A DNA stretch of 61,609 bases, filler included, from 4 parts of 4 records of this genome joined end to end with filler, not necessarily neighbours in it, one strand, 5' to 3'; counted from the first letter of the whole stretch, positions 8,517 through 39,001 are shown. A program made the numbers and translations. The notes: generated by a model from the sequence alone, not told the origin.

Positions 8517-8863
8517 AAGAAGATATGAATAATCATGCGCTCAGAGATTATCCTCTTGAAGCGGTAGGCATCATAACAAAAGATTATAAGTATATCCCTT
8601 GTAAAAATATTAGTGATCTCCCGAAAGAAACTTTTTATCTCGACCCTGCCGCTCTCGTAAAGCATGATGGCAATATTTGGGGAATTTTTCATTCTCATCC
8701 TGGGTCAGAAAACCCAATTCCTAGTCAAGAAGACAAAATTGGAGCAGCATTCCAAGAGTATAAATTTTTGGTTGGATTCAATAATAAATTTTACATATAC
8801 TGGTATAATGAAAAAATTGATGCATTAATTTTTGATGATTTTAAGGAGAAACATTGCTCGTAG
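8495..8863 (+). CDS. JAB/Mov34 metalloprotease-like tail assembly protein (gpK N-terminal-like)
   Basis: EAVG...FHSHP....PSQED JAMM motif. Confidence 0.85.
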   Translation: MEKFSKLKEDMNNHALRDYPLEAVGIITKDYKYIPCKNISDLPKETFYLDPAALVKHDGNIWGIFHSHPGSENPIPSQEDKIGAAFQEYKFLVGFNNKFYIYWYNEKIDALIFDDFKEKHCS

Positions 8864-9597
8864 ATATTAAAATACACTCAGCTTTTACAGATTTTTTCCC
8901 AAATCTCTGTTTAAAGGCTGACATCAAAAAATATATGGATGTTCCTTATTATTTAGGCTCTATTCATCCTAGATTCAAAAATTATGCAAAAGCGATTGAT
9001 AATGGTGATTGTCAAGAAGGTTATGCGATTTTGGACAAAAATTTAAAAGTTGTCTGTGATCAAGATTTATTCATTAAATCAGCAAAGAGAGACGATACCT
9101 TTTATATTGTTCCTGCAATAGTAGGGGGTGGTGGTAAAAGAGGAAATATGCTACTTTTTGCAGCTATGGCCGCTGCCGCGATTTACACAGGAGGTGCTTC
9201 TGCGGGATTAGGATTGAGTCCTGGCGCTTTGGGAGGAGCTCTCACACCAGGTACTGCTTTTACAGCCGCTGGAGGCGGGTTTGCCGGTACACAGGCAGCA
9301 GCTAGTATGGCTTTTGGATCATTAGGCACTATGGGTAGTACTTTAGCAGTTAACGCAGGGTTGGCTCTTGTAACTTCTCTTTTTACAGAAAGACCCGGAG
9401 ACATAAAACAAACGGATCAAAATATAAGAAGTAATGATATGTTTGGTTCTTTACAAAATACAATCGATAGTGGAGTTCCTATCCCATTAATATATGGAAT
9501 GCATAGAGTAACAGGACAATTAATAAGTGGATATTTAGATACAGTGGATCACGGTAAAGAAGATATTATCACTGTAGCATCAAGGTTTACAACATGA
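8854..9597 (+). CDS. Tail assembly protein I-like
   Basis: Ubiquitin-like N-domain ending IVPAIVGGGG, a Gly/Ala hydrophobic segment, and a NT...GVPIPLIYG...V.G.LIS motif. Confidence 0.75.
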   Translation: MLVDIKIHSAFTDFFPNLCLKADIKKYMDVPYYLGSIHPRFKNYAKAIDNGDCQEGYAILDKNLKVVCDQDLFIKSAKRDDTFYIVPAIVGGGGKRGNMLLFAAMAAAAIYTGGASAGLGLSPGALGGALTPGTAFTAAGGGFAGTQAAASMAFGSLGTMGSTLAVNAGLALVTSLFTERPGDIKQTDQNIRSNDMFGSLQNTIDSGVPIPLIYGMHRVTGQLISGYLDTVDHGKEDIITVASRFTT

Positions 9598-12515
9598 AAC
9601 GTTATTTTACTGAATATGACAATAAAAAAGTTCCTGTCATTCGGGGTGCTTTTGGCGGCGGTGGCGGCGGTGGCAACCAAGGTTTTAATGAAGACCCAAA
9701 CTCACTATTTTCAACAGATATACTTTTTATCCTTTCAGCATTAGGAGAAGGACCTTTATATCGTATTAACCCTAATGGTCCTCAAGATATTGAAATCACT
9801 GAAAACTCTATTAATGATCTTATTAAAATAGACGGTGATGGGTCAGAAAATACTGAGGTATTTAAAACACTTAATAGAACAGGAACAATTAATCAAACCG
9901 TTCTCACCAACTTTGGTACGCAGACAGTAACTCCTCAACAGTTTAGTTCCCCTGTTACATTAAAAAAAGGTAATATTGATGGTGTTCCTGCAGCAAAAGT
10001 TGTACTCCAAGAAACAAGTGCAAGAGCGTGGGACGAAATTAACATTACATTAATAGTTCAGTCACTGTTTAAGCAAGAAGATAATGGCGATGTAAAAGCA
10101 CACTCAGTTGATATTAAAGTTACGTTTTTTGATTCTACTGGTGCTACTGAAATAGGTGTAGTTGAAGAAACTATTAATGGAAAAACTAATACTCCTTACA
10201 AAAAAGCTGTAAAATTCACTGTTCCTGAACAATATAAATCTGATGATGGATATCGATTCACTATTGAAAAAACCAGTGATGAATCTACAAGTTCTAAGAT
10301 ATCTGCTAATGTACAAGCTGTTGGCTGGTTTGAGATTGAAAACTCTCCCCAAGCTTATCCACGTACTGGTCTAGTTGGTTATGCTATTAAAGCAATAAAC
10401 GAACACTCTGGAGGAGTTCCTACTCTGAGTTCTTTAGTCAAAGGACTAATAGTTAAAGTTCCTTCTAACTATAATCAACCAACCTTAGGGGATGGACAAG
10501 TAGACTGGAGACAAGTAGAATTACCTGAAACTGGCACTTTTGGGTATACGACAAGTGGTTACACATTGCAAAAAGAGGCAGTAACTTATCAAACAGTTAC
10601 AGGTAGTGGTACTACCTCTAATCTATTTGGTTTAGGGATTGATGTTACTGTTACTGGGAGTAATCCTTATACTCTTACTATTACTAATAATAATGCTGAT
10701 GAAGATTCTGTAGAAATTGGGTTAAACACAACCGGAGCAACTAGTACCGAAACCGTTTCAACTGCTTCAGCTTCTGACTTTACTACAAATACTTACAATG
10801 ATCAAAGACAACACCTCCCTCAATATGTTACTCTTCCCTCTGTAAACACTAATGATAGACTGGTTAGTTTTTTAGTGTGGGGAGATAACGGTATTGACGG
10901 TAGATTTGATGGGAACTTTAAAGTATCACATTCAGGAGTTTATAACTATAATGTTAGATACTACATTCAAGGTGGTAGAACAGCAACTTTTGAGTTTTAT
11001 GTTAATGATGTACTAACAAATACCCACTCTATAACTACAAACAATACTTGGAAAAACGAAGATGGATCTTTAACCTTAAATGCCGGAGATACTGTTCGTA
11101 TAAATGCGACCGGACCTTCTGTAGGCTGGTCAGCAATAGGTGTGGATTTTGGTGCTTCTAATTTTAATTCAAGAGTCTTAACTACTGTGTCTTCAAACGT
11201 AACTGATCCAATTGTTCTGGCTTATGGAGAGTCTTATGTTTTATCAACTCTCTTAACGTCAACTTCCTGGGTTGTTCAGGCAGGAACTTTTGACCCAGCA
11301 GCTGAGGCTACTATAAAAACAACAGCCAATCCTCAAATATATGTAGGTACTTGGGATGGTACTTTTGTATATTCCTGGACACAAAATCCAGTATGGATAA
11401 TTTATGATATTCTAACAAACAAAACTTATGGATTAGGCATTCCAGAGGATAACATTGATAAATATAAATTTTATCAAATAGCACAGTATTGTGATGCATG
11501 CGATTCGATTACTGGAAGATTTATAGGCGTAGACGGGCAGGCAGATGGATCTTTTAGGTACAAACCTCGCGGCCAATTTACTTCAGTACGAGAAACTCTA
11601 GTAGGAATACCCACTGCTACAGCAATTAAAGAGAGAAGATTTATTTGTGATATGATCATCTCTGATCAAAAACAAACTATGGATACTTTAAACAGTATTG
11701 CAGCTTCATTTCGCGGAACAATAGTTCATTCGTTTGGAAAAATATCTCTAGCTGTTGATATGCCTGAACAGTTACCTGTTATGGTATTTAATGAACCTAA
11801 TATTAAGTCAGGAAGTTTTCAAATCAGCGGTGGAAGAGAGAGTGATATTATTACAGGAGTAGAAGTAAGCTATATTGAACCTACTAATCATTATAAGCGG
11901 GAAACTGTAAGGATAGACACTATTGATGCCAATGACGGAAGTGATAGGAGCACTATTGATAATATTTTAAATCTTGATTTAGCTGGTGTATCAAGAAGAA
12001 GTCAAGCACTTAGATTTGCACAGTACCAAATTGCAGCATCGCGGTATCTTCGTAGAATTATTAACTTCACTACTTCAACAGACGCACTTAACCTAGCTCC
12101 TGGAGATATTATTTCTGTTTCTCAGAATATGACAGGTATTAATTATGGCTTTGGCGGTAAGGTTATAGCAAACTCTTCGACAGCTACTAATACATCACAA
12201 GTTTATTTAGAACATTTTACTGTTCCAACTCTTTCTAGTTCTACTTTTACTGCTAATACTGGTCCTTTAGCTTTACGTGTGATTAAAGCTGATACGGATA
12301 GACTTGACCTATATATTCTTAGTAACAGTGCTTTTATACTAAGTTCTACTGATAATGTTTCTACTGGTTTTGATGAAGCTAATGTATCTGTAGTTGCGAG
12401 ATATAACCCTATTACTAAAGCTCTTGATTCATATACTCAATTTACAAGTAACAGTGCTCCCGCAAAAGGAGATTTATGGTCTATAGGAGAGTGGGAAAAT
12501 CCTGGTAATTTTTAT
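9594..12515 (+). CDS. Host specificity / central tail fibre protein J-like (3'-truncated by gap)
   Basis: LGEGP, YPRT, VKGLIVKVPSNY, WDGTF..SWTQNPVWIIYDILT..YGLG and YCD motifs typical of gpJ. Confidence 0.9.
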
Positions 12516-16839: not shown

Positions 16840-17370
16840 ATGGGCGCTCAACAGGTGGTGAGCCTTGGCAGCCTTGAATCAGATTTAGGACTCTCAAGAG
16901 TTGACTTGCTATTGATCATGCGAGAACTGGGCATCGAACCAGTCAGGAAAGGAATGCGAACGTGGATAAAACAGGAAGAGACCAACGAGATTTACACTCA
17001 CTTAGGACGCAACAACCATGAAGAGCCTCTCATTGCCGAAATAGTTACTATTGATACGCAGGAGCAATTCGATTCACTTGCTTTTTCCAGAAACCAAACC
17101 ACCAAAGAAATCAACGACGGTAACGAGAGCTTCAAAACCTATTCGCAGCTGAGGTTGCTACGGGAGCGAATAGAGCTGTTGGACCTGCTTAGAACTACAT
17201 CGATAGAAGTCCCCACGTCCGAGCTGTGTGCCCTTCTCAACCTGAAAAGAGTACCAACCCTTACAGAATTGCCAAATCACAAGACTGGCTTTAGTCGCAT
17301 GGGCCTTGTATTTGAAAAGATATCCAAAGAAGGCAATAGGCTTTCATGGAAAGTAGCGAGAGAAACATAA
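16840..17370 (+). CDS. Hypothetical protein, possible N-terminal HTH DNA-binding domain
   Basis: SLGSLESDLGLSRVDLLLIMRELGI resembles an HTH. ATG start, 176 aa. Confidence 0.55.
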   Translation: MGAQQVVSLGSLESDLGLSRVDLLLIMRELGIEPVRKGMRTWIKQEETNEIYTHLGRNNHEEPLIAEIVTIDTQEQFDSLAFSRNQTTKEINDGNESFKTYSQLRLLRERIELLDLLRTTSIEVPTSELCALLNLKRVPTLTELPNHKTGFSRMGLVFEKISKEGNRLSWKVARET

Positions 17371-17457: not shown

Positions 17458-18051
17458 ATGGCTGGATTTTCGACAGCGCTTGCAACCGTGGCGCTCTCAG
17501 GAATCGGGGACAAAACTTTTTTGGCAGCCATTGCATTGGCAGCACGCCATCGAGCAAGGTGGGTCTTTACCGGAAGCGTATCAGCGTTGACCATCGGTGC
17601 AGGAATCTGGATCGCAACTGGAGTTTGGCTTCAAACATTTGTAGCAATAGAAACGATACAATTGGTGGCAGGGATAACATTTTTAATTTTCGGAATCAAT
17701 GCTCTACTCGACGCGTTCAAACGTCACAAAATTGACCTACAAGCAAAGAATAGAGAAAAAAAATCCTCAAATATTGCTCTACCCGCCAATGCAATCATAC
17801 GAAATTCATTTACGACAACATTTTTAGCCGAGTTTGGCGACAAGACACAATTAGCACTTCTAGGCCTTGCAGCAGTACCAAACTTATCAGCTATAAGCAT
17901 CTTCTCCGGTGCAGTGGCAGCGAATATTTTATTAGCCGTGATCGCGGTAACAGCAGGAAAATACCTCAAAGAAATTATATGTCAAAAGAAATTAACCTTC
18001 TTCAGTGGAATCCTATTTATCGTACTTGGTTTAAATATATTAATAACATAA
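17458..18051 (+). CDS. GDT1/TMEM165 (UPF0016) family Ca2+/Mn2+ transporter
   Basis: Two repeats GIGDKT and EFGDKTQ in a hydrophobic multi-TM protein. Confidence 0.88.
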   Translation: MAGFSTALATVALSGIGDKTFLAAIALAARHRARWVFTGSVSALTIGAGIWIATGVWLQTFVAIETIQLVAGITFLIFGINALLDAFKRHKIDLQAKNREKKSSNIALPANAIIRNSFTTTFLAEFGDKTQLALLGLAAVPNLSAISIFSGAVAANILLAVIAVTAGKYLKEIICQKKLTFFSGILFIVLGLNILIT

Positions 18052-18065: not shown

Positions 18066-20144
18066 TCAAAACCTTGAGCTAGAAACAGACAAATTTCTAA
18101 TTGTGTTGATTTCAGCGAGCAATGGGGCTGCATTAAACAAAACCAGTAATTGGAGAGGGGTGAAGGTAGCAAAAAGGGATAAACCAGTAAGCAATACAGA
18201 GGATATAACGAGTAAAGTATTGTTAGCCTGTGATGAACGTGAAAAATTCCTACTCAACACGACCAACCGTGAAAGCCATAATAAATCTCCAGCCAAAATA
18301 ATATCGCAAACTGTTTTAGAGATAAAACCTTCTTCATCATAATTAAAACCAATGGCAACATCAGCACAAGCGAGAGCTGGTATATCAACCACAACATCAC
18401 CAAGAACAGCAACCTTCCCAGAAGAAGATTGGCGACAATTAGCAACGCATTGAAGCCTAGAGTTAGACTCATCTAAACTACCACAATGAGACCCGAATGT
18501 TGAAATTGAAACACCGAGACTGCTTAATTGACTAGAAACAAGTAGATAATCAGAATCGGGAACCCATCGCAGCCTTAGCTGAGAAGAATAAACGAATCCT
18601 TGTGCAATATGCACAATAAGATCATCCCCATCATTATAGAATTTCAATAAAAAAGTAGGATGCCCAACAAGACTTACCAGACAAGATTCGTGAGATGAAT
18701 TGACAACATCAAACTCTAAAGACTGAATAGGTATAGCATCAAAGAAGAGATTCTCTAGGATGCCCCAAAAAACTGTGGAAACATCAGCCTGAAGATATTG
18801 AGCAATAGACCAAAGGATCTGAAGAGGCTCAATAGTATAGTTCAAGGAATTATTAGAGATAACAGATGAGACGATCTGGTAACTACCAAAGTGATGCAAT
18901 GCGTCTATGCTTATCAATATGTGTTCAACTTCTGAAAGGGTAGGTAAAACAAGTACGTCATTAACATGCACACCATTTAACTGCATATCAAACAAAGCTG
19001 TTGCAGAAGAAGAAATCCGTGCACGTTCACAATCTTTTGAAGGAGAAAAGGATAAAATACCAATTGCACGTTCGGTTAAACCATTAAACAGGGACAAAAA
19101 ACCCAATCCCAATTGAAGAGGGGGATAAATTTTATGGTAAATAGATTGGGTCTTCTTTTGAAAAGAAGAAGCACTAAACTGATCTAAATGACGATCTTCA
19201 ATCTGAAAGTCAGAAATATCATCAAAAGCCTCTAAAACCTTACATTTAGCAAAACCATGCAGGACAGAAGATCCAAAGGGAAGTTGATCACCTCGCTCCA
19301 CTTTTATTGGAAGCGAAGAACCATTGCTGAGACTATTCGACACAACGAGTTCCCCATCTACAACAATTGAAGGGAGATAAACATGATTTCCAGAATTTAA
19401 GTTATAGCAATCACCAACAGAAACATCACTAAGGGGAGACAACACAGTAGTATCATTATTTTGGATACATGGAATCATTACACTCGATTTAAGACGATCT
19501 AAAAAATCAAGAAACTGAGCACTAGATCCATCAGTACTTTCATTAAGAGACTGTATGGCAGAAGTTGAACTACCAATGAAGCGGTCAACAAGCAACTCTT
19601 TGGACAAACCAGAAACGATTAATGATGTTGATAAAACAAGCTCTGCAGATGATTCAGGAAGCAACTGAGAGGACGACTCATTTGCAAACCGATCAGCAAC
19701 TTGATCGAAAAACTCTCGGATTAAAGGCCATATCAAAACTGCAGATGTAACACTAAGGATCCATGGAGAAATAACAATAAAAGTATCAACCAACAAAACT
19801 GAACCGAGAACAAAACTACGGTTGAGTGCAGATTTCAATGAAGGGTTATGAACAATATTCGTAAATTGATTTTCATCAGACAATATTGTCTCAAGAGTAG
19901 AGTCTGCGAATGGATCAATAAAACAGCCTTCAAGTAGGGATAATAATGAACCTAATTCACCTGGAGGAAAACGAATAACAACTGTGCTAGAGAAGGTATT
20001 AATACGGAATCCATATAACCAATGAGTTCGATGTAATAGAGCCGCGCAATGCTGTCTTAGACCGGGAAATCTAGATAGATCAGGATGATAGACCCTAACC
20101 CTGTCTTTCAATTCACTTCGAAGGATCCAAGGGGTAGATGACAT
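18066..20144 (-). CDS. Degenerate P1B-type ATPase-like protein with N-terminal HMA_2-like domain
   Basis: Domain order of a P1B ATPase, but TGE is replaced by SNGS, DKTGT is absent (ILISIDAL) and GDGxND is GDVVVD. ALACADVAIG...CDIIL is retained. Confidence 0.7.
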   Translation of the reverse strand: MSSTPWILRSELKDRVRVYHPDLSRFPGLRQHCAALLHRTHWLYGFRINTFSSTVVIRFPPGELGSLLSLLEGCFIDPFADSTLETILSDENQFTNIVHNPSLKSALNRSFVLGSVLLVDTFIVISPWILSVTSAVLIWPLIREFFDQVADRFANESSSQLLPESSAELVLSTSLIVSGLSKELLVDRFIGSSTSAIQSLNESTDGSSAQFLDFLDRLKSSVMIPCIQNNDTTVLSPLSDVSVGDCYNLNSGNHVYLPSIVVDGELVVSNSLSNGSSLPIKVERGDQLPFGSSVLHGFAKCKVLEAFDDISDFQIEDRHLDQFSASSFQKKTQSIYHKIYPPLQLGLGFLSLFNGLTERAIGILSFSPSKDCERARISSSATALFDMQLNGVHVNDVLVLPTLSEVEHILISIDALHHFGSYQIVSSVISNNSLNYTIEPLQILWSIAQYLQADVSTVFWGILENLFFDAIPIQSLEFDVVNSSHESCLVSLVGHPTFLLKFYNDGDDLIVHIAQGFVYSSQLRLRWVPDSDYLLVSSQLSSLGVSISTFGSHCGSLDESNSRLQCVANCRQSSSGKVAVLGDVVVDIPALACADVAIGFNYDEEGFISKTVCDIILAGDLLWLSRLVVLSRNFSRSSQANNTLLVISSVLLTGLSLFATFTPLQLLVLFNAAPLLAEINTIRNLSVSSSRF

Positions 20145-20168: not shown

Positions 20169-20696
20169 TCAGAGAACGAAAGGACGACGAACTGAGATTG
20201 CCATTTCCAGGAGAGACGTAGCCAGAATCATCAACCAGATTCCGGGAGATAATGGCAAAAACAATCCGAAAAAAGAGAATATGAAGACAATGCCAGATGT
20301 GAAAAGCAAAGATAGGGATAAGCAAATAGAGATGCCATTAAACAAAGTATTGAGTACGTTCGACCCAAGAGAAAATGAAAAAGTATTCCGGTCATGGATG
20401 ACCACAACGGGACTAAGTGGAAGAACTGACACATCAAAACCGAGTTGGTGGAGTTGCTTAGAGACTCCTTGGTAAACATAGGAAGAACGGCTAGGGAGAG
20501 AAGGCATACAATTTAATGATTGAATAACAAGAGAAGATGCACTAGGATTAATCCTTACAGACCAAGAGTGAAGTGGAAAAAACTGATGAAGATGATCTAA
20601 GAGAATATCCCAAGGAACCGCAAGAGGTCCAGTTAATTTGAATCTCCAGCGCTGGGAAGTTTGATGAACAAGATCTAACTGACAAAGCATATTCAA
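20169..20696 (-). CDS. HMA_2/CoBaHMA-like domain protein with C-terminal membrane hairpin
   Basis: LVHQTSQRWRF...VRINPSASSLVI, then a TM segment GLFLPLSPGIWL. Abuts the ATPase stop codon. Confidence 0.65.
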   Translation of the reverse strand: MNMLCQLDLVHQTSQRWRFKLTGPLAVPWDILLDHLHQFFPLHSWSVRINPSASSLVIQSLNCMPSLPSRSSYVYQGVSKQLHQLGFDVSVLPLSPVVVIHDRNTFSFSLGSNVLNTLFNGISICLSLSLLFTSGIVFIFSFFGLFLPLSPGIWLMILATSLLEMAISVRRPFVL

Positions 20697-23170
20697 GCTG
20701 GCGCGATGCTAAAGGTTTTAAGTTCGAGAGAGTATTCCCAAACCCAACCATCCGGATCATGCTGAGCAATCCAAGTCGTGAAATCATTTCGCCGGCGTTG
20801 AGCTGAAATTTTTTGATGTGTGACGCCAAGCCGTTTCGCTAACTCAGAAATAGATAAAGGTTCAGATGACAATCGAGTGGAAACTTGATCAGAACTGTCG
20901 AAGTTAGTGTCTGAGGAAGATAAACTTGATGACGGAAGAGGTTTGGCTTTGAAGCCAAGAGCTCTGATTGCATTCCCTGCAGCAACAAGAGCAGATCCAT
21001 TATTTAAAAATACGGCAGCAATTGGACTGACAGGTAAGAAGGTTCCTATCACCAAAGCTGAAAGATTTGGAACACCAACAATTCCGATATTTTGTTTAAC
21101 AAGGGCAAACGTATGACGTGCAAGATCTTGAGCAACGATCAAATCAGAAACCTTGTCATTGGTAAGAACAATGTCTGCTGTTTCTCTAGCTAGATCACTG
21201 CCTGAAGCAAATGAAACTGAGACATCGGCATATGCAAGAGCTGCCGAATCATTTATACCATCACCCACAAAAGCAACTTTCTTTCCTTGTGAGGTGTAGT
21301 ACTTGACCAATTCAGCTTTTTGATCAGGAAGTGCATCGGCATGTACTTCATGGGGCTGAAGGCCGATACTTTCGGCAACAGAATGAGCAACAGTAGCAAT
21401 ATCTCCTGTGAGCATATGAGCTTCTATTCCACGTCGATGTAGCTCAGCAATCATGTCACAAGTATCTGGTCGAATCTGATCTAGCGCATAGTGAATGCAA
21501 GCTAGAGAACCATCGATGGCAAGATAAATTGGAGTTGCAACAGAAAGATCAGGGCGAGCTGTGAAAACAGGGAGCACGACACCCTCATCTTCAAGCAATT
21601 TGAAGTTTCCTAGAAGAACCCTCTTACCGTAGATCTCAGCAATAACACCACGACCTACTTTATAATCCCAACTATCGCAATCTGAAGCAGAAATTTGTAC
21701 CGACTCAGCTGAATCACGAATAGCTTTTGCAATCGGATGGTTGAGTCCTTGTTCAAGAGAAGTGGAAATTTGAAGAAGTTCTCTATACAATGAATCATCA
21801 ATTTGTTTTATTTGTTGGCCGCTCGGCTCAAAAGCATCAAGATGAACAATAGAAGGATGACCTTCAGTTAAAGTTCCTGTCTTATCAAAAATCACAACAT
21901 CAACATCCACCAGTTGCTCCAAAGCACGACCACTACGGATCAACAAACCCTGGCTACTGGCTCTAGACAGAGCAGCCATAATTGCAGTGGGAACAGAGAC
22001 ACGTAAACCACTACCAAGATCAAACATCAAAAGAGATGCGGCTTGAGCGATACTTCCACCACTGATGAATAGGGAAAGTCCTGCAAGTGCAAGCGTTGGG
22101 AGTACAAATTTATTTGCAATATTAGAGGCAAAATTTCCAACTCTTGTATCAAAGACAGGAGCTTCTTCAATCATTTTTGTTATTTGTCCTACACGAGTTG
22201 CATCTCCAACAGCAGAAGTTTTAACAACGATACTACCCTCTAGAACAATAAATCCAGCAAGGATTTCATCTCCTGGCCGTGACATTCTTGGGACCGATTC
22301 GCCAGTCAATTTAACAACATCTAACGAAGCTACTCCCGATTCGATTACACCATCAATAGGGACCTTGTCTCCAGGCAAAAAAGAAACACGATCACCAGCA
22401 GAGAGTTCAAAACTTGAGACAATGACCTCTCCTTGATCAGTGATTAATCTCACATCTGATTGAAGACTCGAAACCAGATCAGTATTCGATGAATGAGCAA
22501 TCCGCTGCGTAGCATCTCTTACAGCTTCACCACCTTCGACCATTGTGATCATCATCGCAGGGCCTAAGAGAAAACCCTCCAAGCTGTGGAGAAGGACTGC
22601 AAGAGAATCAAGAAAGTCAACATTAATCTTTCGATCTTTTTTCAAACCATCCCATGCTCTTCGAAAACTAAGATGAGCAGAACCTATAATAAAAAAACCA
22701 ATAGCCAGGGGTGGAAGAGCAAGTGGACCAGCCAAGAGAGCTAACCCAAGCGAACAAACTGGAAGTATTATTCTTGTTGGTACAAACTTCTCGTCATCAT
22801 CTTCAAGTTCTGCGGATGCAGAAACCTGCTTAGCCAGCTCAGGAACGAAAGGGATATTTACGACATCCTCTGGCAGGCTCTTCAACCAAGTTGATGAGTT
22901 AATTGTCTGTCCATCAGTGAAAATGACAACAAAGCATCTGGCCCATCCATTGAATCGTGCTGTTTTAACATGGGGCAATGCAACCAGATATCGTTGAAAA
23001 TTATCTATATCGTCCAATCTAGAGTCGACCCTAAAACGCAATCTATGTGACGATGAATGCAAAATAGCATCAACAAAGCGTGGAAAATCATGCTTAGCTA
23101 TCGATCGTTTGCCATCCACCTCACCGTCAACAACGCTGAATGTGGAGGGAATTTGGTAAGAGGCTGCCAT
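20693..23170 (-). CDS. Heavy-metal P1B-type ATPase (P1B-6/FezB-like)
   Basis: LTGES, FDKTGTLT, HP, MLTGD and GDGINDS are intact. No CPx motif (FDLGSGLRVSVP instead). N-terminal HMA_2-like ILHSSSHRLRFR. Confidence 0.9.
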   Translation of the reverse strand: MAASYQIPSTFSVVDGEVDGKRSIAKHDFPRFVDAILHSSSHRLRFRVDSRLDDIDNFQRYLVALPHVKTARFNGWARCFVVIFTDGQTINSSTWLKSLPEDVVNIPFVPELAKQVSASAELEDDDEKFVPTRIILPVCSLGLALLAGPLALPPLAIGFFIIGSAHLSFRRAWDGLKKDRKINVDFLDSLAVLLHSLEGFLLGPAMMITMVEGGEAVRDATQRIAHSSNTDLVSSLQSDVRLITDQGEVIVSSFELSAGDRVSFLPGDKVPIDGVIESGVASLDVVKLTGESVPRMSRPGDEILAGFIVLEGSIVVKTSAVGDATRVGQITKMIEEAPVFDTRVGNFASNIANKFVLPTLALAGLSLFISGGSIAQAASLLMFDLGSGLRVSVPTAIMAALSRASSQGLLIRSGRALEQLVDVDVVIFDKTGTLTEGHPSIVHLDAFEPSGQQIKQIDDSLYRELLQISTSLEQGLNHPIAKAIRDSAESVQISASDCDSWDYKVGRGVIAEIYGKRVLLGNFKLLEDEGVVLPVFTARPDLSVATPIYLAIDGSLACIHYALDQIRPDTCDMIAELHRRGIEAHMLTGDIATVAHSVAESIGLQPHEVHADALPDQKAELVKYYTSQGKKVAFVGDGINDSAALAYADVSVSFASGSDLARETADIVLTNDKVSDLIVAQDLARHTFALVKQNIGIVGVPNLSALVIGTFLPVSPIAAVFLNNGSALVAAGNAIRALGFKAKPLPSSSLSSSDTNFDSSDQVSTRLSSEPLSISELAKRLGVTHQKISAQRRRNDFTTWIAQHDPDGWVWEYSLELKTFSIAPA

Positions 23171-23205: not shown

Positions 23206-23541
23206 CTATTCAACGGTTACATCAGTCATTGGTGTGGATTTTTTGTGGATAATGTTTTTTGATTCAGAGCCAGATGCTTCAGTACCTTCAGACTTAGCTT
23301 CCTCAACTAAGTCGATAAAAGACTCTGCTACCTCTGCAGCACCCTTAGCAACACCTTGTACAACCTTGCCTGCAGTACCAGCAGCTACTAGCCCAACTTT
23401 CACACCCGTTTTGGCCATCGTTCGACCTGTTTGTCCCATCGAATCTCCAAGCTCTTGATTACCCATCTTGCGAACAACTGGAGCAAGAGCCATCAAAGCG
23501 GCACCTGCACCAAAAGCAGCAATAGTTTCTAGCTCGAACAT
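23206..23541 (-). CDS. DUF5132-like small membrane-associated protein, copy 1
   Basis: Gly/Ala hydrophobic N-terminus, AKTGVKVG, ESFIDLVEEAKSE. Immediately upstream of the ATPase. Confidence 0.7.
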   Translation of the reverse strand: MFELETIAAFGAGAALMALAPVVRKMGNQELGDSMGQTGRTMAKTGVKVGLVAAGTAGKVVQGVAKGAAEVAESFIDLVEEAKSEGTEASGSESKNIIHKKSTPMTDVTVE

Positions 23542-23632: not shown

Positions 23633-24679
23633 TTGACTACAATCTTTAGCTCTGATCGGTATTCAACGCTACAGACTGCTGTTGAATCTGTGATCGGTTC
23701 TTCAACAGATGAGAGAATGAAGATACTTGACCTGACCGGTGAACGAGTCTTTAAATGTTTGAGACCTGGTTTGGAAATTGAATACTTTGATTATTATCAG
23801 TCAATTGAAAAAGTTTGGAGTGAGTTGTTGCCTCATGCTCTTGACTGGTGGAAGCCTTTAGGACTTGAAAATAATAATGCCATTGAACTTCCTGAACTCC
23901 CAGGCCTAGAAGACATATTAAAACTTACTGTTCTCGCTCGAGGAATAGAATCGGCCAGCAATAATAAGAATTTAATTGTACTTTTGCCGCCACCATTACA
24001 GGCCTTAAAAATACTTCGAATGGCACATCAAGGGCCTGAACTTATCGACGACATATTGGACCCATTGCTGAATTGGTGGGATTCAACCCGAGGATCATTA
24101 GCGACAGTCGAAAAACTTCTTAGGCTTAATCTTCCATCTTCAGCACAATTAAGACTCACAACTTCCTGGAAAGAGCGTATGAAGACTCTTCAAAGAATTA
24201 CTTCCGATCGAAAATTACACCATCTTATACTTTTATTCGATGGATACAACATGTCATCAGAAACAATCAAGACAAGGATTAGCACTTGTGGAATCCATGG
24301 GGTGATTCCGAGCCATATAATCATAGAAAGCCATGCAGAGAAGTCTCATGAATCGCTCTCCTCAAAAGATCTAAATGATCTAGTAGACATTAGTTTTTGC
24401 CAATCAATCGTTGATATTACGCCAATACTAAATAAAAAGAGCAATGCAGAATTAAAAATCTCGGCTCCAACGACAGAATATAATACAAAATCCTGCGAAT
24501 TAAAGGTTTTTCTTCCTTATATCTGCAAAGAAAAATTAACTATTAAGCAGCATTACGATCAAATTTATTTCATTTATCAAGGGAGTCGTAGAACAATTCC
24601 TTTACCAAAAAGTTGGGCCTCTTTAACATGCACACATGCAAAAATATCATCAGGATGGCTGAGTCTTGGATTTGGCTGA
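23633..24679 (+). CDS. Degenerate ArsA/Get3-like protein with C-terminal HSP20-like domain
   Basis: ELPELPGLEDIL motif. C-terminal LKVFLP...RRTIPLP....AKI..GWL.L.F resembles ArsA_HSP20. No GKGGVGKT P-loop. Confidence 0.7.
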   Translation: MTTIFSSDRYSTLQTAVESVIGSSTDERMKILDLTGERVFKCLRPGLEIEYFDYYQSIEKVWSELLPHALDWWKPLGLENNNAIELPELPGLEDILKLTVLARGIESASNNKNLIVLLPPPLQALKILRMAHQGPELIDDILDPLLNWWDSTRGSLATVEKLLRLNLPSSAQLRLTTSWKERMKTLQRITSDRKLHHLILLFDGYNMSSETIKTRISTCGIHGVIPSHIIIESHAEKSHESLSSKDLNDLVDISFCQSIVDITPILNKKSNAELKISAPTTEYNTKSCELKVFLPYICKEKLTIKQHYDQIYFIYQGSRRTIPLPKSWASLTCTHAKISSGWLSLGFG

Positions 24680-25078
24680 TGGCCTCCAACCCAGCCACCA
24701 TGCCATTAAAAAGAAGGGTGTCCCAGGAAGAATTGGCAAAATCCACCCAAGTAGAGCCAAAACTAACATCGCCTGTATAGATATCTTTTTAGTTTGATGC
24801 CCCACACGCTCAAGTTTGGTAGGAGGGAGTATTGGACCTTGAGGGTGTGTAGATAAAAAATATTGATCCAACCAAATTTGAATTTTAATTGCGTCAATAC
24901 GATGATCTTGGATAGAAACTACAACACAACCTTGACCTAAGGAAGACTGCCGAAGAATTAGATATGGATAATAGTATGAAAAGGTTGAGTTTAAAAATAA
25001 ATATTCTAAAGGCGATAAAGTGTTGGAGAAAATGAATCGCACCCGATTCGGTGTTACGTGCTTAATGCTGATCGTCAA
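24650..25078 (-). CDS. HMA_2-like domain plus DUF454/YbaN-like membrane hairpin
   Basis: IKHVTPNRVRF at the N-terminus and LGWILPILPGTPFFLMAWW at the C-terminus. Confidence 0.65.
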   Translation of the reverse strand: MTISIKHVTPNRVRFIFSNTLSPLEYLFLNSTFSYYYPYLILRQSSLGQGCVVVSIQDHRIDAIKIQIWLDQYFLSTHPQGPILPPTKLERVGHQTKKISIQAMLVLALLGWILPILPGTPFFLMAWWLGWRPSAKSKTQPS

Positions 25079-25081: not shown

Positions 25082-25396
25082 TTAAGCTTTTGCTGTACCG
25101 GTTTTTACCTTAGAAGTTTTAGACGGCTCAGCCAGATCAGCTTTGGCTTCAGCGAGAATGTCGCCAAAACTTTCTCCAATCTCATTGACTCCTGATTTGA
25201 GACCAGAGAAGGCGCCCGTGATGGTTGAACCAATAACAATACCCACCTTGAGGCCTTGCTTTGTCAAACCACGCCCAACACCAGAGATGGTTCTTGTCAC
25301 AGAGCTTTCACGTCCAGCAACAGTCGACACAACAGGTGTAATCGCCACGAGAGCGGCTCCAAGACTGAAGGCAACCAGATACTCGAGCTCGAACAT
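25082..25396 (-). CDS. DUF5132-like small protein, copy 2
   Basis: Starts MFELE like copy 1 (ATG at 25396). TKQGLKVG and ESFGDILAEAKADL motifs. Confidence 0.7.
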   Translation of the reverse strand: MFELEYLVAFSLGAALVAITPVVSTVAGRESSVTRTISGVGRGLTKQGLKVGIVIGSTITGAFSGLKSGVNEIGESFGDILAEAKADLAEPSKTSKVKTGTAKA

Positions 25397-25515
25397 GAAG
25401 GCCACTATTAAAGTAAATATAATATAGCTAGGCATGTCCCCAAAAGAAGTATCATAGAGCACAAAAAGAATGAGATTGCTTGAATTTCAGCACACACTAA
25501 ATGATCAATATTAAC

Positions 25516-26178
25516 TTAGCTGACTTGAGTGGCTAATGACAGAATAATCGAAAGAACAGTTGATGAATAAAGGAAAGAAGCCAAGCAATGAATGATTACA
25601 ACTCGACGAACAGAAGAGTCCTTAATCCCACAATCTGTCATAGAATAAGTTAAACCAATCGAATAGGAAATATATAAAAAATCACTAAATGTAGGTTCCG
25701 ATCCCTCGAAGATAAAACCTTTTGACTCTTCATTGTTGACTAATTCAAGCGGATTCATATCAAAGTATCTTTTTGCGTAATACAAAGCAAATCCATTATG
25801 GAGCTCAACCCAAGTAAGAAAGACGGCAGTAAAAGAAATGAAGACATGAAAAGAGTTGGGCAAAACATCAGATGGATTATGCAGATCAGCAACGCAAAAC
25901 GAGAGCAATCCCAAACTAAGAAAAACTAGAGCGATTGTTTTCTCAGCAACAAGAATTCCTTTGGCGCTATACTCAACGAATAAAAGTCGTGTCGATCTTT
26001 GATCAAGAAGCCAGCCTTGTTTAACCATTTGAAAAAGATCCCAACCGAGTGAGAGCATAATTGCGACAGTTAAGCCCTCCTTTGGGGTAAGAATAGGAAT
26101 AAGGACAAGGCTTGAAAAAAAACCAAGAGCAATAGAGCGAATCAATCGATATTGGTCTGATAGAGATTGATATCTCAT
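25516..26178 (-). CDS. DUF1345 family membrane protein
   Basis: H..FALYYAKRYF, F.FEGSEPTFSDFLYISYSIGLTYSMTD, VRRVVIIH motifs. Confidence 0.8.
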   Translation of the reverse strand: MRYQSLSDQYRLIRSIALGFFSSLVLIPILTPKEGLTVAIMLSLGWDLFQMVKQGWLLDQRSTRLLFVEYSAKGILVAEKTIALVFLSLGLLSFCVADLHNPSDVLPNSFHVFISFTAVFLTWVELHNGFALYYAKRYFDMNPLELVNNEESKGFIFEGSEPTFSDFLYISYSIGLTYSMTDCGIKDSSVRRVVIIHCLASFLYSSTVLSIILSLATQVS

Positions 26179-26188: not shown

Positions 26189-27559
26189 TTAAGATAAAGA
26201 CTTAGAAGAAATAATCAATTTGTCGTGAATCATAGGGATGATTAAAGATTTAATTATCATCGAAAAAATCACAACACCGCACACAATATCAACCATGAAG
26301 ATAACACTACTTTTCTGGATAAGCTCAACACCCTCAAGCCCAAATGTCTCCTCTAATAATGCTGGAGCTGTAACAATTAACGCCATTGAAATCGCTCCTT
26401 TGGGACTCCAAGATGATAAAATTTTAAATTCTTCTGGTTCGATTGAATCACCTCTGAAAAACATAAATACAGATGCAGGACGGACCAAGATAACCCCAAG
26501 CCAAACCAGTATTGCAATAGGAAGATGGTGAAAAAATGATGTTGCTTCCATACCTAAACCAATAGCAAAAAATAAAATAGCTTCAGAAGCAATGTTCAAA
26601 GATTCAAGCTCCTCGGTGAGGAACTCAACTTCCTCAGAGGAAGCACTACTACGATAAGAAATAGAGGTGAATATGCCCATGACAAGAGCACTTAAATAAC
26701 CACCAGAACCAGCCAAGTAAAAAGATACAACATAGCCAATGAAAGCAAATGAAATAGCAATTAAAACCAGCTGCGGCCTGGATGTTACGATGTTTCTAAT
26801 AACAAACATCAGCAAATAACCTAAAATAAAGCCTGATAATATTCCGACAAGTACACCCTTTACGATAGATATAAATATATTTTCTTGAATTAGAATAGAA
26901 TCATTGGCATAAATATGCATCCAAGCTAATACCAGCAATTCTGCGAAAATCAAGGATATAGCGGCAGATACGGATGTCTCAATCTTAAATATATCGCTGA
27001 TAACCTCACGAAAATCTGCAATCTTATTGGATACAAATGTAAAAGAATTCCAATCTTGTACTGCTAGAGAGAAGACTATTGCAGTTGCAATTAACCACAG
27101 CTTTTGTGGCTCTACATCAGGAAGAAGATTAAAATAAACTTGAAGGAAACCGAAACCAAGTCGCAATAAAATTAGCCCTATAATCATACTGAACAGTGTG
27201 CCAAAAACTGCAAGAAGCAGTGAGCTAATCAATATTTTGCTCCGTTTCAGTAAGCTTTTTGAAAAAGCGAGTCCACTAAAAAACAAAAGAATCGTCACAG
27301 ATACAACATGGATTTCCTCTAGAGGAAATGTTTCTAAATTAAATCCTGTGACGTTGTGAAAGAATAAGCCCGAGAAAAATAAAAAAATCGATCCGGGAAT
27401 GCCCAATTTCAAACCTACTTTATCAAAAATAATCCCAATTATTAACAATAAGGACAATGATAATAAGGCGTAGACAAATGAAAATTGCAGCGTTTCAACA
27501 GAATATGAGGTGTCAGACGTAGATATTTCAGAAATCAGTGGCAGCCAAAAACTCAGCAT
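26189..27559 (-). CDS. Cation:proton antiporter (CPA1/NhaP-like), divergent
   Basis: About 12 TM segments; LLFFSG, GSGGYLSALVMGI, LFFAIG, VRP and PKGAISMAL motifs. Confidence 0.8.
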   Translation of the reverse strand: MLSFWLPLISEISTSDTSYSVETLQFSFVYALLSLSLLLIIGIIFDKVGLKLGIPGSIFLFFSGLFFHNVTGFNLETFPLEEIHVVSVTILLFFSGLAFSKSLLKRSKILISSLLLAVFGTLFSMIIGLILLRLGFGFLQVYFNLLPDVEPQKLWLIATAIVFSLAVQDWNSFTFVSNKIADFREVISDIFKIETSVSAAISLIFAELLVLAWMHIYANDSILIQENIFISIVKGVLVGILSGFILGYLLMFVIRNIVTSRPQLVLIAISFAFIGYVVSFYLAGSGGYLSALVMGIFTSISYRSSASSEEVEFLTEELESLNIASEAILFFAIGLGMEATSFFHHLPIAILVWLGVILVRPASVFMFFRGDSIEPEEFKILSSWSPKGAISMALIVTAPALLEETFGLEGVELIQKSSVIFMVDIVCGVVIFSMIIKSLIIPMIHDKLIISSKSLS

Positions 27560-27785: not shown

Positions 27786-28424
27786 TTGTCTGACTATCTT
27801 GACTCTGACATTTCTCCGTGTAGCCCTTATTTAATTATTGATGAGCTTAAGAGGGGTTTTGAGAGATTTAAATCTGGTCGAACTGACCATCCCCATGCCA
27901 CAGCAGCTCGTGTTCATCAGCTTATTGGAGGTCAGCATCCACAAGTCGCTCTGCTCGCATGTTCTGATTCTCGGGTTCCAATTGAAGTTATTTTTGATGC
28001 AGGATTCGGAGATTTATTTGTTATCCGTAATGCGGGAAATACCAATACATTTGGCTCAGCAGGTTCAATCGAGTATGCAGTTTTAGACTTAAAAGTTCCC
28101 GTGCTTGTAGTCATGAGCCACCAGGGCTGCGGTGCTGTAAAAGCAGCTTTCTCAAAAGATAGTATTTTTTCCAAATCCCTGACAGAATTGGTAGAAGATA
28201 TTAAACAGGGTTTAATTAGGTATAATATTGATATCAACGATTCAACAACCTACCAGGAAGCATGTATCCGTCATGCAGCGATTACCGCAGAATCATTAAT
28301 GAAAATAAGTAAAGATATTCATGATGCTGTCCGTCAGAAACGATTATTGATTCAACCAGCTTATCTGCACATCGATCCAATCCAAATTGATTGGCTCACT
28401 CCTTACTACGGAGATAATTTCTGA
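27786..28424 (+). CDS. Beta-class carbonic anhydrase
   Basis: [23 protein letters not shown] and HQGCGAV zinc-ligand motifs. Confidence 0.93.
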
Positions 28425-29087: not shown

Positions 29088-29088
29088 T

Positions 29089-31854
29089 GATTCTGATTTG
29101 AAAGCAATTGCTGATCTTAGAAACGATTTAGATTCTGAATCAGCTGTTATCAGAACTTTATCAAGCGCTGGCTCATCACCTTTCACTGATTCTGATTCAA
29201 TTCATAGAATAGCTCTTAAATCTAACCCTATTAGTTTAGCGGATTCAAGAGCATTAAGTATAGGCAAATCGTTACCTGACTCAGGTACTTCGCAAGTAGG
29301 TGATTTCTTTATTAGCTGGGATTCAGAAGAAACTATTTACCAGTTAAGACCTGCAACTCAATATAATACAAATATGTTATCTGTAGGTTCTTTTTCATCT
29401 AACAGTGTAATTTATACTTCTGGTACTCCTTCAGGTGCAAACAATGCTACAACACCTAGTACGTTTCCTTCACCTATAGGAGCTGGTAGCTATACAAGAT
29501 CTTTTCATACCAATCACTCTAACGGTGGAGGTTACATAACATTTACGTTTTCAACTCCTACACCAGTGGTTTATTTCTATGTTACTGGTAGTGATGCAAA
29601 CGCTAGAATTCAAAGAATTAATTATGAAAACGGGGACTACGCTTTAAACGCATCTAATTCTAATCCTTCTTTTTCAGAAAACATTACGTGGTATGGAACA
29701 ACCCAAAGTAAAGTCGTAAACGGTAATGGCTCTTTTGATGCTAGACATCCAGATGACGCGTCTATTAAAGTAACCAGTATTCAGTTTAGAACTTATGACA
29801 GATCATGGGTCAACTATTATTGGTTGTTCATGAGTTCAGCAAATGAGTGGGTACCATGTGGTAGAATTTTAGATAGTGATTCCATCAATAAAATTATTGC
29901 AGAAAACAGTTCAGGTTTTGCAACTACTTCTTTTGATTCAGATCAAGTTGTATCCATAGTAAACGAAAACTCCGGAGTTAACTTTATTGTAGCTAACAAC
30001 GGATCGGCAGCTTATACATTTACCGGTGATGGTTTTCCATCTGGTGTAGATAATCCTACCTTATATCTAAAAAGAGGTCATACATACAGATTTAAACTTG
30101 CAGTTACGGGTCACCCATTTGAGATTAGATCTTCAAATGGAGGTTCTGCATACAGTACAGGGGTCACTAATAACTCAGCACAAACTGGTGTGACTACATT
30201 TACTGTACCTATGGACGCTCCTGATACTTTAGTTTATCAATGTACTTTACATTCAGGTATGGTTGGTACAATTAAAATTGGAAGGCAAGGTTTTGATTCA
30301 GATCAGATAGTTGCTATTATTAATGAGAATACTACCGCGGGTTCAATTGATTCTGATGTAGCTGCTATAGCTGCTTTAAGAAGAGATGCTGACAGTGATA
30401 GTATTCGTATTCAAGAAATAGCTACTTCGCTTGAACAGATTAATGAACTGGTTGATTCCGATCTCAAAGCAATTGCTGATCTAAGAAATGACGTTGACTC
30501 TGATTCCATTAAGTTACAAGCATTACAAGAGACTGTTGCTGGTTTAAGCGTGGGCGCAGGTTTTGATTCAGATCAAGTTGTAGCTATTATAAACGAAAAC
30601 ACAAGCTCAGGTTCTGGTTCTGGAATGACAGATTCAGATCTAAAAGTTGTAGCTGATCTTAGAAACGAAGTAAATGCTTTAAATTTATCAGCCGGCTCCA
30701 TCGACCAAAACGCTACATTTACAACATTCAAGTATAAGACAACAAATGGTCAAACAACAATTAGTGGTGTTGATAGAGACAACCAAACTCTAAGCTACGT
30801 CGCTGGTAGTATTAATGTATTTCTCAATGGTGTACTGCTAAACGATTCTGATGACTATACTGCATCTAATGGTAGTTCAGTAGTCCTTCAATTAGCAGCT
30901 GACTCAGATGATGTTGTTGTGATACAAAAAGTAGCTTCTACTTTAGATTCAGAAACTGTACAATCAATATGGAATGATAATTATCAAGCACTTGATATTT
31001 CAAGATTTGATTTTACAGCTATACAAAATCAAACAACATTTACTGGAGCTGATGATAACGGTGCTACTCTTAGTTACTTTACTAATAAAGTTCAAGTATA
31101 TTTAAACGGTATCTTATTATTAAGAACTACAGACTACACTGATACATCTGGTACAAGCATAGTTCTTACTCAAGCAGCTGATTCAGATGATAAATTATCT
31201 ATTATCAAATACATAGGTCAAACAGCAACTGAAAATCTCAATATTACAAGATTCACATATGGTTTTGGCGATGCAGGTAATGGTACAGTAGGTACAACTA
31301 ACATATCTGGTAATGATGATAACGGTAACTTGTTATCATATGGTGTAGGTAAAATACAAGTCTTTTCTAACGGTATATTGTTAGAAGACTCAGAGGATTA
31401 TATTGCTAATGATGGATCTAGCATTATACTTCAACAAGGCGCTGACTCTGATGATAAAATAAGCATCATCAAATACAACGGTGCAATTCAAAGAGTTGAT
31501 GGTGTAGGTTTTGATAGCGATCAAGTTGTAGCAATAGTAAATGAAAATGCTAGCTCTGGTACTACCACTTTAGCACCTACTGATTCTGACTATACATCTT
31601 CAGCAGGTCAGACACTAATTATGGATACAAGCAGTTGGCCAAGAACAGTTACTCTTCCATCATCTGCTTCTTTAGGAGATTTAATTAGAGTTATTGACGG
31701 AACAGGTTCTGCAGCTACAAATGTAATTACTGTTAATAGAAACGGTCATAAACTTCTTGGAGGAGATAGTGACATGTCTATAAATATTAATAGATCAGGT
31801 ATTTCATTGATATATTATAACACAGCTCAAGGATGGATTTTACAGGACAACTAA
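29089..31854 (+). CDS. Phage virion fibre/structural protein with DSD repeats and a cupredoxin-like domain (5'-truncated)
   Basis: FDSDQxVxIxNEN x4, DSDLKxxADLRN x3, three VFLNG-type beta repeats, HPF...YQCTLHSGM domain, phage fibre-type C-terminus. Confidence 0.75.
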   Translation, partial: DSDLKAIADLRNDLDSESAVIRTLSSAGSSPFTDSDSIHRIALKSNPISLADSRALSIGKSLPDSGTSQVGDFFISWDSEETIYQLRPATQYNTNMLSVGSFSSNSVIYTSGTPSGANNATTPSTFPSPIGAGSYTRSFHTNHSNGGGYITFTFSTPTPVVYFYVTGSDANARIQRINYENGDYALNASNSNPSFSENITWYGTTQSKVVNGNGSFDARHPDDASIKVTSIQFRTYDRSWVNYYWLFMSSANEWVPCGRILDSDSINKIIAENSSGFATTSFDSDQVVSIVNENSGVNFIVANNGSAAYTFTGDGFPSGVDNPTLYLKRGHTYRFKLAVTGHPFEIRSSNGGSAYSTGVTNNSAQTGVTTFTVPMDAPDTLVYQCTLHSGMVGTIKIGRQGFDSDQIVAIINENTTAGSIDSDVAAIAALRRDADSDSIRIQEIATSLEQINELVDSDLKAIADLRNDVDSDSIKLQALQETVAGLSVGAGFDSDQVVAIINENTSSGSGSGMTDSDLKVVADLRNEVNALNLSAGSIDQNATFTTFKYKTTNGQTTISGVDRDNQTLSYVAGSINVFLNGVLLNDSDDYTASNGSSVVLQLAADSDDVVVIQKVASTLDSETVQSIWNDNYQALDISRFDFTAIQNQTTFTGADDNGATLSYFTNKVQVYLNGILLLRTTDYTDTSGTSIVLTQAADSDDKLSIIKYIGQTATENLNITRFTYGFGDAGNGTVGTTNISGNDDNGNLLSYGVGKIQVFSNGILLEDSEDYIANDGSSIILQQGADSDDKISIIKYNGAIQRVDGVGFDSDQVVAIVNENASSGTTTLAPTDSDYTSSAGQTLIMDTSSWPRTVTLPSSASLGDLIRVIDGTGSAATNVITVNRNGHKLLGGDSDMSININRSGISLIYYNTAQGWILQDN
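29932..31548 (+). repeat. Dispersed ~39-nt coding repeat (FDSDQxVxIxNEN), 4 copies
   Basis: Copies begin near 29932, 30292, 30562 and 31510. Confidence 0.85.
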
Positions 31855-31855
31855 T

Positions 31856-32857: not shown

Positions 32858-32888
32858 TTGTATACAAGTAAGAAGGATTAAATAGAAT

Positions 32889-34346: not shown

Positions 34347-34349
34347 ATA
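34342..34349 (+). promoter_or_regulatory. T4-type late promoter TATAAATA
   Basis: Exact consensus 15 nt before the ATG at 34365, followed by a GAGG RBS. Confidence 0.7.
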
Positions 34350-34364
34350 TCACAAGAGGTAACA

Positions 34365-34607: not shown

Positions 34608-34618
34608 AGGAGTTAGAA

Positions 34619-36454: not shown

Positions 36455-36463
36455 GAGTTAATC

Positions 36464-37675: not shown

Positions 37676-37681
37676 TAAATA
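37674..37681 (+). promoter_or_regulatory. Late promoter-like NATAAATA
   Basis: GATAAATA 20 nt before the ATG at 37702. Confidence 0.5.
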
Positions 37682-37701
37682 CATAAAGTGAGTATACGTT
37701 A

Positions 37702-38994: not shown

Positions 38995-39001
38995 AGAAAA
39001 C

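Follow-up and report, generated by a model that had tools for sequence, protein, structure and literature searches.

We found that the 692-aa ORF at 18066-20144 on the minus strand encodes a P1B-type ATPase body that has lost its catalytic motifs and is retained by selection. The window, by which we mean the whole analysed stretch of 61,609 nucleotides, consists of four contigs concatenated with N spacers, two of them cyanobacterial and two phage-like. The P1B fold, the loss of the same residues in the homologs and a dN/dS of about 0.2 together point to a retained non-catalytic role, and the initial annotation, which had proposed such a role rather than decay, is well supported in this respect. 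Neither the connection with calcyanin and with ferrosome- or effluxosome-type clusters nor the separate descent from the neighbouring pump featured in that annotation. Judged from its sequence and its model, the protein appears to be a genuine pseudo-enzyme, a P1B body that would be unable to phosphorylate itself or to cycle. We consider it quite possible, though short of probable, that this dead pump serves as a non-catalytic membrane subunit of a ferrosome- or effluxosome-like cation-handling assembly, which would be built with DUF5132 scaffolds and is probably tied to intracellular calcium carbonate storage.

The dead pump sits on a Synechococcus-like contig between N runs at 12615 and 28988. 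The surrounding cassette forms a low-GC island, with GC3 of about 0.3 compared with 0.65-0.69 in the met/cysK genes on its flanks, and contains the following features.

16840..17370, plus strand: 176-aa conserved cassette protein, possibly an HTH regulator (weak AbiEi_4 match in one homolog)
17458..18051, plus strand: GDT1-family divalent cation/proton antiporter, convergent with the dead pump (Pfam)
18066..20144, minus strand: dead P1B-ATPase paralog, 692 aa, in the order CoBaHMA - MA/MB/M1/M2 - A - M3/M4 - P - N - P - M5/M6
18111..18113, minus strand: Glu678 in M6 of the dead pump, invariant in 32/32 orthologues
18384..18401, minus strand: GDVVVD, the eroded GDGxND, with G582 and D587 invariant
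18909..18911, minus strand: Ser412 in place of the phosphorylated Asp (gapless register against the pump)
19317..19325, minus strand: N274-G275-S276 in place of the actuator TGE (alignment)
19917..20132, minus strand: N-terminal CoBaHMA/HMA_2-type domain of the dead pump, aa 5-76, its best-conserved part
20169..20696, minus strand: 175-aa small membrane protein with a CoBaHMA-like N-terminus and a DUF454-like hairpin (homolog sequences; weak DUF454 matches in homologs)
20693..23170, minus strand: intact P1B-type ATPase, 825 aa (Pfam/TIGRFAM-type profile matches, motifs)
23206..23541, minus strand: DUF5132-like small membrane protein with a GxxxG-like TM and an acidic C-terminal helix (Atlas, as leads only: DUF5132 0.91, DUF1490 0.87; PacL-like lead)
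23633..24679, plus strand: Get3/ArsA-fold (NosAFP-like) protein with an HSP20 domain and no visible P-loop (profile matches, homologs)
24650..25078, minus strand: CoBaHMA-like and DUF454 small membrane protein (Pfam, homologs)
25082..25462, minus strand: second DUF5132 protein (Pfam E 8e-5, below the cut-off)
25516..26178, minus strand: DUF1345 membrane protein (Pfam)
26189..27559, minus strand: cation/proton antiporter, Na_H_Exchanger (profile matches)
27786..28424, plus strand: beta-carbonic anhydrase (profile matches)

On the minus strand, the gene order is antiporter, DUF1345, DUF5132, CoBaHMA-DUF454, DUF5132-like, 825-aa P1B pump, 175-aa ORF and dead pump. The Get3-like gene lies on the opposite strand between the CoBaHMA-DUF454 and DUF5132-like genes, and the carbonic anhydrase and GDT1 genes stand on either side of the block. 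The dead pump had been placed two genes downstream of the active pump, and this is indeed its position: the pump (23170-20693) is followed by the 175-aa ORF (20696-20169) and, after a 24-nt gap, by the dead pump. The spacing suggests that these three genes may be co-transcribed, and the promoter and terminator scans gave counts at chance (26 versus 27.1 expected and 11 versus 10.9 expected). Metatranscriptome contigs from four runs of two studies, which may include DNA, contain parts of the dead pump ORF at low depth, and at least two of those listed, possibly of DNA origin, span the junction between the 175-aa ORF and the dead pump. Since no relative of the dead pump was found among the viral contigs searched, the phage contigs in the stretch are not its source; these contigs (1-12515 and 29088-44663) carry tail, baseplate and sheath-like ORFs by inspection and are unrelated to the dead pump.

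The DUF5132 proteins combine a Gly-rich TM with an acidic, AE-rich helix. For the 111-aa DUF5132-like protein, Pfam gives a weak match to DUF5132 alone, and the likeness to DUF1490 is the Atlas lead listed above. The Get3/ArsA-fold gene shows no N-terminal P-loop in the window copy or in the 11 homologs viewed, and its omega is about 0.25; its sequence suggests that the product is a probable second dead ATPase of the cassette, possibly a chaperone for small membrane proteins.

An uninterrupted frame and the P1B domain order had been claimed for the dead pump. The ORF contains no internal stop, and both the order and the fold were confirmed by the predicted structure and by profile alignment. 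Pfam E1-E2_ATPase matches aa 229-321 (E 1.4e-8), the TIGR01525 match (E 3.5e-13) is far below the cut-off, and BLAST against the neighbouring pump aligns the C-terminal part only, with 29% identity over 116 aa. When we compared the dead family with the partner-pump family profile to profile, the alignment extended over the full length (665 columns, probability 99.95, 17% identity). The AF2 model of the dead pump built with 32 orthologues in the alignment, which superseded a 19-sequence model of low quality in the membrane region (pTM 0.43), has a pLDDT of 73.7 and a pTM of 0.62. This model matches P1B pumps end to end, with Foldseek TMq values of 0.59 for ZntA (4umw), 0.60 for CopA (3rfu) and 0.61 for 7qbz, and with Z values of about 19-21, including 21.4 for HMA4 (8q75; rmsd 4.5, 466 aligned); ZntA, CopA, ATP7B and HMA4 are the best-ranked structural matches.

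The catalytic motifs reported as lost are absent, with one qualification. TGE is replaced by N274-G275-S276, which takes the forms NGS, DGS or DGxW among the orthologues. At the phosphorylated Asp of DKTGT the dead pump has Ser412 when the register is counted without gaps from the helix before it; the hhalign alignment is gapped exactly at this site. The column contains Ser in 28/32 and Thr in 4/32 orthologues. GDGxND is absent as such, but it is not wholly gone as had been claimed, since an eroded G582-D583-V-V-V-D587 remains, retaining the Gly and both Asp residues, and G582 and D587 are invariant in 32/32 orthologues. The homologs also lack the catalytic residues, as proposed: DKTG occurs in 0/32 and GDGxND in 0/32 of those aligned. 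TGD and the N-domain HP are lost as well, and the M4 metal motif (CPC/SPC/PCP/SCA/CSC) is absent in the dead family, which contains F-(N/S/T/D)-P instead.

Judged by its substitutions, the gene is not decaying, and selection keeps it intact. In the marine clade, to which all omega values refer, the Nei-Gojobori median is 0.21 for the dead pump (25 of 171 pairs with 0.02<dS<1) and 0.12 for the pump (21 of 153). Over four independent pairs, omega is 0.18 overall (Fisher p 8e-151) and 0.06-0.27 across eight domains; it is lowest in the segment around residue 412 (0.057) and is 0.11 in M5-M6. The initial annotation had named a dN/dS near 1 as a sign of decay, and the value of about 0.2 is far from it. 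All 18 of the near-full-length marine loci are free of stops. A word-index search recovered one ordinary pump and 19 relatives sharing 45-98% identity, of which 18 are full length. A profile search across 1.84 billion representatives yielded 27 matches at E<=1e-30. Among the profile matches is a second full-length tier at 20-27% identity, and all matches of at least 400 aa lack the catalytic motifs. Full-length open frames thus persist at 21-98% identity. The dead paralogs fall into two classes, A with profile scores >600 and B with 280-425, and both classes often occur in one genome.

Conservation is uneven along the chain. The CoBaHMA domain is the most conserved part of the dead pump, with a mean identity of 0.50 and 11/72 columns invariant, compared with 0.40 for the pump's own CoBaHMA. 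The membrane segments reach 0.38-0.45 versus 0.85-0.90 in the pump, and the N domain 0.26 with 0/105 columns invariant. Invariant residues in the dead family include E183 in M2, F366-x-P368 in M4, P663-x-Q665 in M5-M6, E678 in M6, R563 (K618 of the pump) and D587. The position equivalent to E678 is Gly or Ala in all 32 partner pumps.

The N-terminal domain has the ferredoxin-like beta-alpha-beta fold with an extra beta0, the absence of CxxC and the basic beta1/beta2 that characterize CoBaHMA; R15, R17 and R47 are invariant, as are H32, W42 and N49. Its modelled secondary structure is E7-12, E15-19, H27-39, E45-49, E54-58 and H64-74. The conserved His upstream of beta1 is absent in class A, where S10 is invariant, and is kept by some class-B copies. 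HMA_2 matches occur in homologs below the cut-off. The calcyanin profile matches the N-termini of class-B dead pumps (E 1e-5 to 4e-4), and the profile-profile match between class-A copies and calcyanin N-termini is weak (probability 8.9, E 0.004). In aa 32-41 of the dead pump (about 20022-20051, minus strand), H32 is invariant and C33 and H41 are nearly so; in freshwater orthologues the first CoBaHMA helix reads HC-x6-CH, which may be a metal or redox site.

The partner pump retains TGES, DKTGT, TGD, GDGIND and HP. It carries DLGSGLRVSVP instead of CPC in M4 and NNGS in M6, and DLG(T/S)GLRVSVP and NNGS are present in 32/32 partner pumps, so this protein qualifies neither as a CPC pump nor as FezB proper. 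The polar residues in its membrane part (D185, D188, E212, D384, N723 and N724) suggest a hard divalent cation as the substrate. The C-terminus of the pump (20693-20900, minus strand) is a conserved HTH-like domain, L..LAKRLG...QxISARRR...W...DPxG..W, which recurs on protein P0158 and on a fusion protein in genome G064. Complex prediction with pump aa 133-738 and dead pump aa 5-398 scored 0.00; it used shortened chains without alignments and counts neither way.

We then considered the origin of the dead pump. Both dead classes form one clade in a FastTree phylogeny of 60 rows out of the 91 collected and in a quick tree under a mixture model (32 rows), and this clade nests in a second cyanobacterial paralog lineage, other members of which are partly eroded (FARTGT, FAKTGT, GEGIND, N-domain loss). 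A recent duplication of the neighbouring pump was rejected as its origin, since a forced grouping of the clade with partner pumps gave p-AU 0.005. These trees place the dead pump in the second, older lineage; its exact sister is unsure and the branches are long. E678 is ancestral in this lineage. In a phylum-wide sample of 381 genomes with 38 matches, no further full-length dead copy was present at the 29 new loci inspected, which hold DKTGT-bearing pumps or fragments. On the Gloeothece plasmid NC_014533.1 (L096:13861-15429), a 522-aa 'HMA2 domain protein' (WP_013334278.1) lies beside an intact pump and DUF5132; it is a P1B remnant without A/N domains that keeps the CoBaHMA, the membrane helices and the M6 Glu, and by its sequence it is a more reduced dead pump outside picocyanobacteria. 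When the Atlas was searched with the dead pump, the nearest clusters were of about 800-900 aa, with E1-E2_ATPase but no common Hydrolase match, and were commonest in Planctomycetota and Pseudomonadota; they may represent dead P-type ATPases that arose independently in other phyla.

To place the dead pump among its neighbours, we counted genes in 401 evenly sampled Cyanobiaceae genomes of unknown completeness. The dead pump is present in 34, the partner pump in 36 and calcyanin in 23. All of the 34 dead pump genomes also have the partner pump (34/34), and none of the 401 has the dead pump alone. The dead pump occurs in 21/23 calcyanin genomes, and calcyanin in 21/34 dead pump genomes. Both kinship and the co-transfer of a single island inflate these counts, and the tiny p-values overstate independence. 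The dead copy is missing from two pump genomes and two calcyanin genomes, which are three genomes in all (G080 is in both groups): the contig that carries the cassette stops before the dead pump site in G080 and G340, while in G064 the cassette is intact and the dead pump absent. Behind the pump of G064 (L098:7910-9886) lies a 658-aa fusion with a CoBaHMA-like N-terminus, a long, hydrophobic, transporter-like middle that by its look is a candidate MFS-like segment, and the pump's HTH-like tail. Pump sequence lies upstream of the dead pump in 22/24 marine loci, the other two contigs ending first, and in 26/40 fetched family loci the pump is followed by the small CoBaHMA protein and then by the dead pump. 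Pairwise distances of pump and dead pump correlate over 32 loci (Spearman 0.93), as expected from shared inheritance.

Calcyanin, whose gene marks cells with calcium carbonate inclusions (iACC), lies within the cassette in 13/40 fetched family loci. The candidates match PdsO and show the invariant His and Arg pair, the zipper Gly-Pro and the third-zipper Trp and Glu; these residues are given as calcyanin features in the part of PMC8890360 consulted. The calcyanin profile also recovers a protein identical to WP_007100847.1, which the same part describes as a CoBaHMA calcyanin of a strain with observed iACC. Calcyanin (ccyA: CoBaHMA and GlyZip3) was not found in the window or in loci L001-L024, and a plasmid search with a calcyanin candidate gave no match. 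A 302-aa ORF after cax in L097 was rejected as calcyanin, since it is a CAX fragment. Because 13/34 carriers and the cassette of the window lack calcyanin, calcium carbonate storage is not the sole role.

Individual loci depart from the common arrangement. G347 retains the dead pump, although it and the pump lie 460 kb apart. L023 combines an intact dead copy with a truncated, frameshifted pump, possibly an assembly artefact. L057 (G121), which has an intact calcyanin but no Get3-like gene, shows an in-frame stop in both the pump and the dead copy; the two may be decaying together, or the sequence may be in error. Some genomes have two or three dead copies per pump. Class-B copies stand away from the pump and beside GDT1 in three loci (L084, L094 and L095), and additional class-A copies, one tandem pair included, lie outside the cassette in L061 and L102 (G203), L068 and L069 (G070), and L071 and L081 (G219).

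Based on the conservation peak in CoBaHMA and a cassette parts list resembling that of ferrosomes and effluxosomes, we suggest that the dead pump is a recruited non-catalytic subunit. The assembly would comprise the active CoBaHMA-type P1B pump, two small acidic DUF5132 membrane proteins, two small CoBaHMA membrane proteins, the dead Get3-like protein, the carbonic anhydrase and secondary cation transporters, with calcyanin in many relatives. We infer that the basic CoBaHMA of the dead pump docks on the acidic DUF5132 helices, as the Cys-less MBDs of CtpC/CtpG do on the PacL EA repeats, or alternatively on anionic lipid. Docking would place the dead pump and the pump in one membrane patch, where the six helices of the dead pump may help with clustering or stabilising the pump, or with shaping a storage compartment for a cation (probably calcium) and carbonate, and ATP would be spent by the partner pump alone. 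The intact cassette of G064 without a dead pump, the broken pump beside an intact dead copy in L023 and the several class-B copies found alone count against this subunit reading. The initial annotation had offered both a heterodimer partner and a scaffold, and the conservation pattern appears to be a better fit to a scaffold or structural subunit. A direct heterodimer or regulatory subunit, in which the dead copy lends E183 and E678 to the transport path or gates the pump cycle, loosely like KdpA with KdpB, is unlikely. It would explain why every genome with the dead pump also has the pump, why E678 is invariant in dead copies and missing from every partner pump, the stops in both genes of L057 and the retention of the dead pump in G347; the tracking distances also agree with it, although shared inheritance predicts the same. 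Against it, the dead copy did not arise by duplication of the pump, and since its paralog lineage had E678 ancestrally, the apparent complementarity may simply be inherited. Membrane identity far below that of the pump is unlike a tight transport interface, and genomes with several dead copies per pump, as well as G064 with none, speak against such pairing.

The membrane domain might instead act by itself as an ATP-independent leak, uniporter or transceptor, for example releasing the cation from a storage compartment. The invariant E183, E678, F366-x-P368 and P663-x-Q665, the low omega of M5-M6, the class-B copies beside GDT1, the intact dead copy of L023 and the Gloeothece relative reduced to CoBaHMA, membrane helices and M6 Glu are all in its favour. 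We regard this ion pathway or sensor as quite unlikely: no genome of the 401 has the dead pump without the pump, the large A, N and P domains are under purifying selection and would be needless for a simple channel, and the dense polar membrane residues of the pump are unmatched. Atypical chemistry, in which the dead pump would for instance bind nucleotide or phosphate, or be phosphorylated on Ser/Thr 412, and act as a sensor of energy or phosphate, is improbable. Ser or Thr at 412 in 32/32, the invariant R563 and D587 and the lowest omega around 412 would suit it, but residues of this kind are also structural in the HAD fold, the N domain has neither an invariant column nor HP, TGD is lost, and Ala occupies position 412 in at least one class-B protein. 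Finally, a decaying pseudogene or neutral island passenger is scarcely credible; the omega above that of the pump, the in-frame stop in one fetched copy (L057) and the absence from G064 are outweighed by the full-length frames across a wide range of identity, the omega of 0.18 and the 18/18 stop-free marine loci.

Going further than the subunit reading, picocyanobacteria might build a ferrosome-like calcium carbonate organelle whose transport core is an active/dead P1B ATPase pair, the first obligate P-type pseudo-pump subunit, with the calcyanin-free marine cassette as a remnant or variant. We consider this version unlikely; if it is true, calcyanin alone under-counts the machinery of such organelles. 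The dead family is old enough to have diverged to about 20% identity and to have split into two paralog classes, and its near-complete overlap with calcyanin genomes makes the cassette a source of candidate genes for calcium movement into intracellular amorphous carbonate inclusions. Records with the full gene set name the cultured strains Synechococcus RS9909, WH 8101, CB0101, A15-24 and MIT S1220, so the hypothesis is directly testable.

Pseudo-enzymes are common among kinases and proteases. Our literature searches found no conserved dead P-type ATPase family; the survey of CoBaHMA-bearing proteins, reportedly that of Gaschignard et al. 2024, was outside their scope and may list degenerate P1B ATPases. 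The literature covered includes parts of PMC8890360, bioRxiv 2024.07.07.602159, bioRxiv 2025.12.07.689555 and PMC7522525. In the sections consulted of a 2023 review of the P-type superfamily (PMC10654040), neither 'inactive' nor 'degenerate' appears, and the lone 'pseudo' is a species name. In the consulted part of PMC7522525, CK_00045881 is described as 'one or two copies of a P-type ATPase' found specifically in clade VIII and SC 5.2, and this cluster may be the dead pump family.

Compared with known systems, the dead pump shares its domain order and predicted whole-chain fold with P1B-type ATPases (ZntA 4umw, CopA 3rfu/4bbj, ATP7B and HMA4 8q75), but it lacks the phosphorylatable Asp, TGE, TGD, HP and CPx, and has a Cys-less basic CoBaHMA rather than a CxxC MBD. 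KdpB structures are also among the structural matches of its model, and KdpFABC is a P-type ATPase working with separate membrane subunits, as proposed for the dead pump and the pump. KdpA is channel-derived, whereas the putative partner in the cassette is itself a P-type ATPase paralog. In gene content, the cassette has the same parts list as the ferrosome (fez; P1B-6 FezB, the GxxxG proteins FezA/E/G, FezC and FezH). According to the portion of bioRxiv 2020.01.10.902569 consulted, fez clusters encode a P1B pump with an R-rich N-terminal domain, small GxxxG proteins and small R-rich membrane proteins; the larger clusters sometimes add a second P1B, the ATPase FezH, which is uncharacterised, has distinct metal sites and is not called dead there. 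Unlike FezB, which has D[Y/F]SCA and HNxxT, the partner pump has DLG(T/S)G and NNGS, and P1B-6-like sequences fall outside the partner-pump clade in the tree; moreover, the ferrosome handles iron, while the cassette neighbours point to calcium and carbonate. In the mycobacterial PacL-Ctp effluxosome (DUF1490 with CtpC/G/V), acidic single-TM scaffolds are likewise encoded with P1B pumps, and the 111-aa protein of the window resembles DUF1490 at the level of the Atlas lead. PacL is described as a single-TM scaffold whose acidic EA repeats bind the Cys-less MBDs of CtpC/CtpG and cluster P1B pumps (PMC13460109), and the consulted sections of that review describe no dead pump and do not contain 'inactive'; this system belongs to a different phylum and to different metals. 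A further parallel in gene content is with the ccyA neighbourhood of iACC-forming cyanobacteria, which in the part of bioRxiv 2024.07.07.602159 consulted contains two DUF5132, CoBaHMA-DUF454 and CoBaHMA proteins, and which shares the DUF5132 pair, CoBaHMA-DUF454, carbonic anhydrase and cation transporters with the cassette, although the cassette of the window lacks calcyanin. A Fischerella plasmid is reported to carry 'two cation-transporting ATPases' near ccyA, neither of which is called dead in the consulted parts of the calcyanin papers. The cassette is strongly associated with calcyanin and is ferrosome- and effluxosome-like, which suggests that ferrosomes, effluxosomes and the iACC machinery follow a common design.
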